From the NCBI RefSeq assembly GCF_003334385.1, contig NZ_QOWN01000020.1: DNA of 64,000 nt; one strand, written 5' to 3'. The position numbers were made by a program, and so were the translations under genes. The notes beneath the pieces are model-generated. The model was not told the DNA's origin. It ran no database searches and saw only the letters and a list, made by a program, of their open reading frames with translations. This DNA comes from Escherichia coli (lineage in GTDB: Bacteria; Pseudomonadota; Gammaproteobacteria; Enterobacterales; Enterobacteriaceae). Positions 1,271 through 40,786 of the stretch are shown here, one piece after another. The first letter of the stretch is position 1. Every line of letters starts with the position of its first letter.

Positions 1271-2337
1271 TGAGAAAAATTCTGATAACAGGTGGTGCCG
1301 GGTTTATTGGCTCGGCGCTGGTGCGTTATATCATCAACGAAACGAGCGACGCGGTGGTAGTGGTCGATAAGCTGACCTACGCCGGAAACCTGATGTCGCT
1401 GGCACCGGTCGCGCAAAGCGAGCGCTTTGCCTTTGAGAAAGTTGATATCTGCGATCGGGCAGAACTGGCACGCGTATTCACTGAGCATCAGCCAGACTGT
1501 GTCATGCATCTGGCAGCCGAAAGCCATGTTGACCGTTCTATTGACGGCCCGGCAGCGTTTATTGAAACCAACATTGTCGGGACTTATACATTGCTTGAAG
1601 CGGCGCGGGCTTACTGGAATGCGCTGACGGAAGATAAAAAATCAGCGTTCCGTTTTCATCATATCTCCACTGACGAAGTATATGGTGACCTGCACTCGAC
1701 GGATGATTTCTTCACCGAAACCACGCCGTATGCGCCGAGCAGCCCTTATTCCGCGTCAAAAGCCAGCAGCGACCATCTGGTGCGCGCCTGGCTGCGGACC
1801 TATGGTCTGCCGACGCTTATCACCAACTGCTCGAATAACTACGGCCCTTACCACTTTCCGGAAAAACTGATCCCGCTGATGATCCTCAACGCGCTGGCGG
1901 GTAAATCGCTGCCGGTATATGGCAACGGGCAGCAAATCCGTGACTGGCTGTATGTGGAAGATCACGCCCGCGCGCTGTATTGCGTGGCGACCACCGGGAA
2001 AGTCGGTGAAACCTATAATATTGGTGGTCACAACGAGCGTAAGAATCTCGATGTTGTGGAAACCATTTGCGAGCTGCTGGAAGAACTGGCTCCGAACAAG
2101 CCGCACGGCGTGGTGCACTATAGTGAATTGATCACCTTTGTCGCTGACCGTCCGGGGCATGATCTGCGTTATGCCATTGATGCTTCGAAAATTGCCCGTG
2201 AACTTGGCTGGCTGCCGCAGGAAACCTTTGAAAGTGGAATGCGTAAAACGGTGCAGTGGTATCTGGCTAATGAAAGCTGGTGGAAGCAGGTGCAGGACGG
2301 CAGCTATCAGGGCGAGCGTTTAGGTCTGAAAGGCTAA
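1270..2337 (+). CDS. rffG: dTDP-glucose 4,6-dehydratase
   Basis: 355-aa ORF; [11 protein letters not shown]-binding motif; short-chain dehydratase family; position in ECA cluster. Confidence 0.95.
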
Positions 2338-2355
2338 TTTTCAGCGGAGGCAAAC

Positions 2356-3237
2356 ATGAAAGGTATTATCCTGGCGGGCGGTTCCGGCACCCGATTGCAT
2401 CCTATTACGCGCGGCGTATCGAAGCAACTGTTGCCGATTTACGATAAGCCAATGATTTACTATCCGCTGTCGGTGCTGATGCTGGCCGGTATCCGCGAAA
2501 TTCTCATCATCACTACGCCGGAAGATAAAGGTTATTTCCAGCGCCTGCTGGGCGATGGTAGTGAGTTCGGTATCCAGCTGGAATATGCCGAACAGCCCAG
2601 CCCGGACGGTCTGGCGCAGGCCTTTATCATCGGTGAAACCTTCCTTAATGGTGAACCTTCTTGTCTGGTGCTGGGCGATAACATCTTCTTCGGTCAGGGC
2701 TTCAGTCCGAAGCTGCGTCATGTTGCGGCGCGCACCGAAGGGGCGACGGTTTTTGGCTATCAGGTGATGGACCCGGAACGCTTTGGCGTGGTGGAGTTTG
2801 ACGACAATTTCCGCGCTATCTCGCTGGAAGAAAAGCCAAAACAGCCGAAGTCAAACTGGGCGGTGACCGGGCTTTATTTCTACGACAGTAAAGTCGTGGA
2901 GTACGCAAAGCAGGTGAAGCCGTCGGAGCGTGGTGAACTGGAGATTACCTCCATCAACCAGATGTACCTCGAGGCGGGCAACCTGACCGTTGAACTGCTC
3001 GGGCGCGGATTTGCCTGGCTGGATACCGGCACTCACGACAGCCTGATTGAAGCCAGCACCTTTGTACAGACGGTGGAAAAACGCCAGGGCTTTAAGATTG
3101 CCTGCCTGGAAGAGATTGCCTGGCGTAACGGCTGGCTCGATGACGAGGGTGTGAAGCGTGCTGCCAGTTCATTAGCGAAAACTGGCTACGGCCAATATCT
3201 GCTGGAGTTACTTCGTGCCCGTCCGCGCCAGTATTGA
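2356..3237 (+). CDS. rffH: glucose-1-phosphate thymidylyltransferase
   Basis: 293-aa ORF; GGSGTRL nucleotidyltransferase motif; RBS-like GGAGG upstream. Confidence 0.95.
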
Positions 3238-3889
3238 GCCACTAACCTGGGAAAACGCCTTCTTTGGTGTTAACAGCGCCATCGTGCGCATTACGTCTGA
3301 AGCACCGCTCCTGACGCCAGACGCGTTAGCGCCGTGGTCACGGGTGCAGGCCAAAATTGCGGCATCAAATACGGGTGAACTGGATGCCCTGCAACAGTTG
3401 GGATTCTCCCTGGTAGAAGGTGAAGTTGATTTGGCGCTACCCGTGAACAATGCCAGTGATAGCGGTGCTTTAGTGGCACAAGAGACCGATATTCCCGCAT
3501 TACGTCAGTTAGCCAGCGCCGCATTTGCGCAAAGCCGTTTTCGTGCGCCGTGGTATGCGCCTGACGCCAGCAGTCGCTTTTATGCACAGTGGATTGAAAA
3601 TGCCGTGCGCGGCACCTTTGATCATCAATGTCTGATTTTACGTGCGGCGTCCGGCGATATTCGCGGCTATGTCTCTTTACGGGAACTCAATGCGACAGAT
3701 GCGCGAATTGGCCTGCTGGCTGGACGCGGTGCAGGTGCTGAGCTGATGCAAACGGCGCTAAACTGGGCGTATGCTCGCGGTAAAACAACTTTGCGGGTGG
3801 CGACCCAAATGGGCAACACCGCCGCGCTTAAACGATACATACAAAGTGGTGCGAATGTAGAAAGCACCGCGTACTGGTTATACAGGTGA
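3215..3889 (+). CDS. wecD: dTDP-fucosamine acetyltransferase (GNAT)
   Basis: 224-aa ORF overlapping rffH 3' end by 23 nt; synteny in ECA cluster; an internal alternative start is possible. Confidence 0.8.
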
Positions 3890-3893
3890 TCAC

Positions 3894-5024
3894 ATGATTC
3901 CATTTAACGCACCGCCGGTGGTGGGAACCGAACTCGACTATATGCAGTCGGCAATGGGTAGCGGCAAACTGTGTGGCGATGGCGGTTTTACCCGTCGCTG
4001 CCAGCAGTGGCTGGAGCAACGTTTTGGCAGCGCCAAAGTGTTACTGACGCCGTCCTGCACCGCTTCGCTGGAGATGGCGGCGCTGCTGCTCGATATCCAG
4101 CCTGGCGATGAAGTGATCATGCCGAGCTACACCTTTGTCTCCACCGCCAATGCCTTTGTGCTGCGTGGCGCAAAAATCGTTTTTGTGGATGTTCGCCCGG
4201 ACACCATGAACATCGACGAAACGCTGATTGAAGCGGCGATCACCGACAAAACGCGCGTTATCGTGCCGGTCCATTACGCGGGTGTGGCCTGCGAAATGGA
4301 CACCATTATGGCGTTGGCGAAAAAGCATAATTTGTTTGTGGTAGAAGATGCCGCTCAGGGCGTGATGTCCACTTACAAAGGGCGTGCACTGGGAACCATT
4401 GGTCATATTGGCTGCTTTAGCTTCCATGAAACCAAAAACTACACGGCGGGCGGTGAAGGCGGCGCGACGCTGATTAACGATAAAGCGTTAATCGAACGAG
4501 CCGAGATCATCCGTGAAAAGGGCACTAACCGCAGCCAGTTCTTCCGTGGTCAGGTCGATAAATATACCTGGCGCGATATTGGCTCCAGCTATTTGATGTC
4601 CGATCTGCAAGCTGCATACCTGTGGGCGCAACTGGAAGCAGCGGATCGTATCAACCAGCAACGTCTGGCGCTGTGGCAAAACTACTACGATGCGTTAGCG
4701 CCTCTGGCGAAAGCCGGGCGTATCGAGCTGCCGTCGATTCCCGATGGCTGCGTGCAGAACGCGCATATGTTCTACATTAAACTGCGGGATATTGATGACC
4801 GGAGCGCGTTGATTAACTTTCTGAAAGAAGCGGAAATCATGGCGGTGTTTCATTACATTCCGCTGCACGGTTGCCCTGCGGGGGAACACTTTGGTGAGTT
4901 CCACGGTGAAGATCGCTACACCACCAAAGAGAGCGAGCGCCTGCTGCGCCTGCCGCTGTTCTACAACCTGTCGCCCGTCAATCAGCGTACGGTAATTGCG
5001 ACTTTGTTGAACTACTTTTCCTGA
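3894..5024 (+). CDS. wecE: dTDP-4-amino-4,6-dideoxygalactose transaminase (DegT/PLP family)
   Basis: 376-aa ORF; DegT/DnrJ-type aminotransferase features; synteny. Confidence 0.93.
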   Translation: MIPFNAPPVVGTELDYMQSAMGSGKLCGDGGFTRRCQQWLEQRFGSAKVLLTPSCTASLEMAALLLDIQPGDEVIMPSYTFVSTANAFVLRGAKIVFVDVRPDTMNIDETLIEAAITDKTRVIVPVHYAGVACEMDTIMALAKKHNLFVVEDAAQGVMSTYKGRALGTIGHIGCFSFHETKNYTAGGEGGATLINDKALIERAEIIREKGTNRSQFFRGQVDKYTWRDIGSSYLMSDLQAAYLWAQLEAADRINQQRLALWQNYYDALAPLAKAGRIELPSIPDGCVQNAHMFYIKLRDIDDRSALINFLKEAEIMAVFHYIPLHGCPAGEHFGEFHGEDRYTTKESERLLRLPLFYNLSPVNQRTVIATLLNYFS

Positions 5025-39886: not shown

Positions 39887-40786
39887 GTGGCGCTACTTAT
39901 CATCACCACGATTCTGTGGGCCTTCTCCTTTAGCTTTTATGGCGAGTACCTTGCGGGGCACGTCGATAGCTATTTTGCGGTGCTGGTGCGCGTTGGCCTG
40001 GCGGCACTCGTTTTTCTGCCGTTTCTGCGTACCCGTGGCAATAGCCTGAAAACGGTCGGCCTGTATATGCTGGTGGGCGCGATGCAGCTTGGCGTGATGT
40101 ATATGCTGAGTTTCCGCGCTTATCTCTACCTGACGGTTTCCGAGCTGCTGCTGTTCACCGTGCTGACGCCGCTCTACATCACGCTGATTTATGACATCAT
40201 GAGTAAGCTCCGTCTGCGCTGGGGCTATGCCTTTAGCGCCTTGCTGGCGGTGATTGGTGCCGGGATTATTCGCTATGATCAGGTCACCGACCATTTCTGG
40301 ACTGGCTTGCTGCTGGTGCAACTCTCCAATATCACTTTTGCCATTGGCATGGTGGGTTACAAACGCCTGATGGAAACTCGCCCGATGCCACAGCATAACG
40401 CCTTTGCGTGGTTCTATCTTGGCGCGTTTCTGGTGGCAGTGATTGCATGGTTCTTGCTGGGAAATGCGCAGAAAATGCCGCAAACCACGCTGCAATGGGG
40501 CATTCTGGTGTTTCTTGGCGTGGTGGCTTCCGGGATTGGCTACTTTATGTGGAACTACGGCGCGACGCAGGTGGACGCCGGAACGCTGGGCATTATGAAT
40601 AATATGCACGTTCCGGCAGGGCTGCTGGTAAACCTGGCTATCTGGCACCAACAGCCGCACTGGCCAACGTTTATTACAGGCGCGCTGGTGATCCTGGCCT
40701 CACTGTGGGTGCATCGTAAGTGGGTCGCTCCGCGCTCTTCACAAACGGCAGATGATCGCAGGCGTGATTGCGCGCTGAGCGAATAA
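39887..40786 (+). CDS. bioP: EamA/DMT-family transporter (biotin uptake)
   Basis: 299-aa polytopic ORF (yigM); 3' end overlaps convergent metR. Confidence 0.85.

Follow-up and report, generated by a model that had tools for sequence, protein, structure and literature searches.

The acetyltransferase gene wecD of the enterobacterial common antigen (ECA) cluster of Escherichia coli is very probably translated from the GTG at position 3215 of the 64,000-nucleotide stretch of DNA analysed here (the window), giving a 224-aa two-domain enzyme, and the 23 nt that it shares out of frame with the end of rffH would be a genuine, ancestral dual-coding junction. This assignment draws on comparative, structural and signal evidence, that is, on evolution and structure. 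A preliminary description of the window had called the wecD start ambiguous; all three kinds of evidence favour GTG 3215, and the start chosen there by the longest open reading frame is upheld.

The overlap itself is an ordinary and already annotated feature. RefSeq gives rffC as 675 nt, overlapping rfbA/rffH by 23 nt, and a gene-pair table for E. coli K-12 lists the rffH-rffC distance as -23 (PMC10666635, supplement). The rffH/wecD junction is a well-supported case of co-directional genes that really do share more than 20 nt, with GTG as the start of the second, and it can be set against the rule of thumb by which a long overlap and a weak start codon together mark a mis-called start. It matters little beyond annotation hygiene and opens no new question on ECA biosynthesis.

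Gene layout and geometry of the overlap

The open reading frame list and the RefSeq annotation place the ECA (wec/rff) cluster in this window in the order wecC-rffG-rffH-wecD-wecE-wzxE-wecF-wzyE-wecG, and the features relevant to the junction are collected in Table 1. The identities first read from the sequence (rffH, wecD as a GNAT acetyltransferase gene, and an ECA operon) agree with both RefSeq and NCBIfam. RffH matches the NCBIfam profile TIGR01207 (rmlA) with 534 bits, and WecD matches the NF008212 equivalog model with 356.7 bits against a cut-off of 219, its residues 1-224 lying on profile positions 1-231 of 232. The position of wecD next to wecE (transaminase) within the cluster likewise fits membership of the WecD/RffC family.

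Table 1. Coordinates of genes, candidate starts and signals at the rffH/wecD junction (window positions unless another locus is named)
Feature	Position	Strand	Remarks
rffH (rmlA2; PGAP name rfbA), glucose-1-phosphate thymidylyltransferase	2356..3237	+	293 aa, stop TGA 3235-3237; from the ORF list and a 100%-identical RefSeq record
wecD (rffC), dTDP-4-amino-4,6-dideoxy-D-galactose (dTDP-fucosamine) acetyltransferase	3215..3889	+	GTG start, 224 aa, longest ORF
Dual-coding segment, 23 nt	3215..3237	+	wecD codons 1-8 (the 8th partial) and rffH Arg-Ala-Arg-Pro-Arg-Gln-Tyr-stop
Shine-Dalgarno (SD) GGAG of wecD	3204..3207	+	within rffH Leu-Glu codons (ctG GAG), 7 nt before the start codon
wecD start codon GTG	3215..3217	+	inside rffH Arg-Ala codons (cGTGcc)
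Internal GTG, Val24, candidate for a 201-aa product	3284..3286	+	SD -2.8 kcal/mol; judged not a start
Internal GTG, Val44, alternative giving 181 aa	3344..3346	+	weak SD, -2.2 kcal/mol; judged an ordinary Val codon
wecC-wecD junction of E. coli Ec-U4-19	locus L094, 2440-2520		corresponds to the window junction around 3215

The two reading frames bear out the 23-nt overlap that had been reported at 3215-3237, and it is out of frame in the sense that codon position 2 of rffH is codon position 1 of wecD. The junction is also, as had been noted, the odd one out in the operon. The remaining junctions had been described as overlaps of 1-4 nt or gaps of 2 nt, which holds for wecB/wecC (-4), wecC/rffG (-1), wzxE/wecF (-4), wecF/wzyE (-4) and wzyE/wecG (+2) but not for rffG/rffH (+18), wecD/wecE (+4) and wecE/wzxE (+1). 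The matching RefSeq record annotates ten co-directional overlaps over 50 kb; seven measure 4 nt, two measure 1 nt, and rffH/wecD is the sole longer one. RefSeq also annotates, at 40638-40750 of the window, a 113-nt convergent overlap between metR on the minus strand and bioP/yigM on the plus strand, which greatly exceeds all the co-directional ones of the region.

The arrangement is that of the K-12 reference. The genes rffH (b3789) and rffC/wecD (b3790), the 23-nt overlap and the 224-aa length of the product are identical there, and the junction is without any difference. Of the 5405 E. coli genomes with a match to the 50-nt sequence spanning the junction, 5358 carry it at 99% identity or more.

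Conservation of the start across Enterobacteriaceae

The comparison set consisted of 80 Enterobacteriaceae loci, one genome per species, and the window, giving 81 genomes that are mutually related, so that the counts below do not represent independent events. An ATG, GTG or TTG lies within one codon of the position homologous to 3215 in all 81, save two in which the start is displaced by -3 and -5 codons, and the WecD products are 223-230 aa long. The gene rffH precedes wecD in 47 genomes, and 46 of these 47 have an overlap of exactly 23 nt (45 with GTG, one with ATG). This recurrence, together with the near-identity of the junction in almost all matching E. coli genomes, indicates that the overlap is no chance feature of one sequence. 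The start homologous to GTG 3215 is the only in-frame start common to all 46 overlap genomes.

In the other genomes a different gene adjoins wecD. The rffG-rffH pair is absent and wecC lies directly upstream in 32 of the 81 genomes, and rffG is the upstream neighbour in two. The wecC-wecD junctions, which include loci L007, L013, L019, L020, L036 and L058, comprise 4-nt GTGA/TTGA overlaps (n=13), 1-nt overlaps with ATG (n=3) and gaps of 9-78 nt (13 ATG, 3 GTG); when junctions with rffG are taken in as well, the types are 4-nt GTGA/TTGA overlaps, 1-nt overlaps and gaps of 4-196 nt. The N-terminus of WecD stays in register whether rffH, wecC or rffG lies upstream. The 78-nt wecC-wecD spacer of a Klebsiella/Raoultella/Enterobacter group (L027, L031, L032, L035, L038, L047 and L057) contains a recognisable relic of the rffH 3' end, with ATG as the start in four of these loci and GTG in three. 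Citrobacter koseri NCTC10786 (L009) presents a separate case, in which a TAA located 86 nt upstream of the wecD start closes the rffH frame and the junction sequence is otherwise conserved; this early stop could be due to an rffH pseudogene or to a sequencing error.

The same overlap is found well beyond this set. In two distant genomes whose WecD is only 52-53% identical, rffH again overlaps wecD by 23 nt, with GTG in one and ATG in the other, and RffH is 293 aa in both, with tails reading LLRVRPRQY* and LLHVRPRQY*. The 23-nt overlap therefore appears older than the split between lineages whose WecD proteins are now barely half identical, and it is older than the genera in the 80-locus set.

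Dual coding within the overlap

Variation in the shared segment was scored among the 46 genomes with the 23-nt overlap. All wecD third positions in the overlap, which are rffH first positions, are invariant, and those immediately downstream (3238, 3241, 3244 and onwards) vary freely. Two differences, each seen in a single genome, are G3215A (which gives an ATG start) and C3218T; all other variation falls on the rffH wobble sites 3219, 3222, 3225 and 3231 or on the stop codon (TGA or TAA). At the protein level the wobble changes affect WecD residues 2, 3, 4 and 6 and leave RffH RARPRQY intact, and the tail RARPRQY* is conserved in 44 of the 46 genomes. Within the overlap it is the RffH tail that is kept, with the less constrained WecD residues absorbing the changes.

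Other rffH wobble sites are fixed, namely 3216 (a CGN Arg codon, and the middle T of the wecD start), 3228 (WecD Ala5) and 3234 (WecD Ile7). Upstream of the overlap, G3204 is the first base of the SD and also the four-fold-degenerate wobble base of an rffH Leu codon (CTN); it is G in 46/46 genomes, and neighbouring Leu wobble sites vary. That silent rffH sites are frozen precisely at the wecD SD, at the start codon and at conserved WecD residues is direct evidence from the sequence for selection on the wecD frame and its start.

Dual coding also accounts for the choice of start codon. GTG is a weaker initiator than ATG, and ATG is the commoner wecD start codon where rffH is absent, being found in most such lineages. 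At the overlap the start lies inside the conserved Arg-Ala of RffH (CGT GCC), and a change to ATG would alter that Arg, so that the start is held at GTG; the overlap thereby fixes a weak start codon. RffH has Asp for Arg in the one overlap genome of 46 with ATG and His in the one distant genome with ATG.

Initiation of wecD translation

Upstream of wecD its frame runs back to the stop TAG 3173, and the window sequence holds no ATG, GTG or TTG in that frame between this stop and 3215, which is therefore the most upstream possible wecD start; a start further upstream in E. coli was rejected on this ground. An ATG at -27 nt was likewise considered and rejected, as only 18 of the 46 overlap genomes have it and it results from a synonymous TAC/TAT change. 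The window has ACG at the corresponding position (3188-3190), the ATG of the 18 other genomes arising through this variation in an rffH Tyr codon. It is probably the source of the 233-234-aa WecD entries, such as that of Salmonella bongori P0045, which would imply a 50-nt overlap.

The GGAG at 3204-3207 forms an anti-SD duplex of -5.9 kcal/mol, the best among the in-frame candidate starts of the wecD N-terminal region. The wecD ribosome-binding site, made up of this GGAG and GTG 3215, is written into the last codons of rffH. Most likely, initiation is SD-directed, with 30S subunits binding the polycistronic wec mRNA at this site within the last part of rffH. Ribosomes finishing rffH pass through the wecD start site and would probably keep it unfolded and accessible, and a possible minor route is reinitiation, the ribosomes concerned having terminated 20 nt past the wecD start. 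RNA structure does not appear to be involved, since the fold of 3165-3275 is no better than that of shuffled sequence (z = -0.11) and no Rfam match was obtained in 2000-4500 at E up to 1; structural control of the wecD start was rejected on these two results. No internal promoter or terminator was found near the junction in 2800-3500.

A rather unlikely though not far-fetched alternative keeps GTG 3215 as the start and has it used mainly by termination-reinitiation, with ribosomes moving from the rffH TGA some 20 nt backwards and WecD strictly dependent on translation of RffH. The exact conservation of the overlap length at 23 nt would suit such coupling, but it is more simply explained by the conservation of both protein ends. 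Native reinitiation in E. coli is local and falls steeply with distance, a stop-start distance of about -8 to +10 nt being taken as predictive (PMC10666635); here the distance is -23. The conservation of G3204 at a silent rffH site points to SD-directed binding instead, and in genomes that lack rffH a free-standing SD and ATG serve wecD with no need for a terminating ribosome upstream. Short co-directional overlaps of the ATGA/GTGA and TAATG kinds, which are associated with termination-reinitiation, resemble the rffH/wecD pair in joining genes of the same pathway and operon, and 16 of the 81 genomes have wecD itself in an overlap of this kind with wecC, of 4 nt or 1 nt. They differ from the present junction in geometry, as the rffH stop lies 20 nt downstream of the wecD start and so outside the range in which coupling is predicted. 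The supplement table of PMC10666635 does not enter RffH and WecD as subunits of a common complex, and a literature search on coupling or overlap of these two genes returned nothing.

Coding character and structure of the WecD N-terminus

Among the 81 genomes, entropy at codon positions 1, 2 and 3 is 0.83, 0.64 and 1.37 for wecD codons 9-43 and 0.51, 0.42 and 1.28 for codons 44-224, and the third position is the most variable in 26 of the 35 codons of the upstream segment (binomial p about 9e-7). Pairwise dN/dS is about 0.1-0.3 for codons 9-43 against 0.09-0.18 for codons 44-224. No stops or indels occur in codons 1-43 in any of the 81 genomes, and L10, W12, E13, F16, F17 and R43 are invariant there. 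Full-length orthologues down to 31% identity align with WecD from residue 1, with W12, F16 and F17 still invariant, and the N-terminal motif L10-x-W12-E13-x-x-F16-F17 is kept. Judged by their pattern of substitution, codons 9-43 evolve as coding sequence, and the evidence is that the stretch between 3215 and 3344 is translated.

Structure leads to the same conclusion. WecD of the window matches the chains of PDB 2FS5/2FT0, reportedly the crystal structure of Hung et al. 2006, over residues 2-224 (E = 4.9e-143), with three substitutions relative to the crystallised K-12 sequence, at residues 80, 86 and 120, all downstream of residue 44. The crystallised chain is recombinant with an 11-residue tag, and thus shows that the 224-aa form folds rather than where native initiation takes place. 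[quoted passage not shown] A start at residue 44 would therefore split a folded domain.

The shorter alternative of about 181 aa mentioned in the preliminary description corresponds to GTG 3344 (codon 44), which gives exactly 181 aa. Across the 81 genomes this codon is GTG in 52, GTA in 17, CTG in 7, TTG in 3, TTA in 1 and GTT in 1, so that 26 genomes, E. albertii (GTA) among them, have no start codon there; the same holds for codon 24 in 39 of the 81. It is highly improbable that both starts are used in E. coli, GTG 3215 for the 224-aa enzyme and the internal GTG at 3344 (or 3284) for a shorter N-terminal proteoform. A retapamulin profiling preprint is said to document internal in-frame initiation in E. 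coli, and the window is among the genomes with GTG at codon 44, but neither 3344 nor 3284 has a usable SD, codon 44 changes between Val and Leu codons in the manner of any sense codon, the shorter product would lack half of a folded domain, and no structure or RNA motif marks the site. Neither codon 44 nor codon 24 thus combines a conserved start codon with a ribosome-binding site, the pairing expected of internal initiation. As a speculation to which we give very little credence, initiation at 3344 by a small fraction of E. coli ribosomes might yield a 181-aa WecD that lacks the first half of its N-terminal domain and has a role of its own, such as altered dimer formation, or, in a weaker variant, the exactly conserved 23-nt overlap might persist because backward reinitiation over it sets the ratio in which RffH and WecD are made. 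Nothing in the data supports weak internal initiation at 3344.

Two published data sets on initiation and protein N-termini were consulted. The supplements of a tetracycline-inhibited ribosome profiling paper (PMC4909307) contain no wecD/rffC/b3790 entry, nor does the TRAINSPOTTER N-terminomics supplement (PMC13245402), in which the absence is uninformative, as the tryptic N-terminal peptide of WecD after Met removal (PVR) is too short to be detected.

A long co-directional overlap with a weak start codon is typical of 5'-extension errors (Palleja, Harrington and Bork 2008, PMC2478687), and the rffH/wecD junction resembles these misannotations in its weak GTG, in the overlap and in having in-frame starts further downstream. 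It differs from them in that the overlap is 23 nt rather than more than 60, wecD is as long as its orthologues and the extension shows conservation at the protein level, and the junction therefore falls outside that class. By the marks of genuine overlaps given in the same study, wecD is of orthologue length, the 3' end of rffH is unextended (293 aa), and the overlap is conserved across species with a dual-coding substitution pattern. The notion that the overlap is a 5'-extension artefact, with wecD really beginning at GTG 3344 as a 181-aa protein behind a 106-nt untranslated spacer (3238-3343), has the frequency of such mis-calls, the in-frame GTG and the start of one family model at residue 44 in its favour and has virtually no chance of being correct, given the constrained and uninterrupted codons 9-43, the non-start codon at position 44 in 26 of the 81 genomes, the weak SD of GTG 3344, the alignment of remote orthologues from residue 1, the uniform orthologue length and the domain that it would cut in two.

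That family model is TIGR02382 (wecD_rffC, 191 positions), which begins exactly at WecD residue 44 (window 3344-3886), and NF008212 covers the full 224 aa. The 181-aa form corresponds to this older, shorter database model, which is still in use, and not to a competing biological start.

E. coli genomes without rffG-rffH

Within E. coli itself, rffG-rffH are missing from the ECA cluster in 117 of 5426 complete genomes. These 117 have a 40-nt spacer with GAGGGAG after wecC, and wecD begins with an ATG at the codon homologous to GTG 3215 (...gagggagtcacacaATGcccgtccgcgcc...), as in strain Ec-U4-19 (Table 1). These strains presumably rely on the O-antigen rmlA/rmlB paralogues for dTDP-glucose. In another strain, E. 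coli LB19b (L003, 1816-2403), the annotation treats both wecD and wecE as truncated pseudogenes, the first 'missing C-terminus' and the second 'missing N-terminus'; this points to an internal deletion, which would leave the strain unable to make dTDP-Fuc4NAc.
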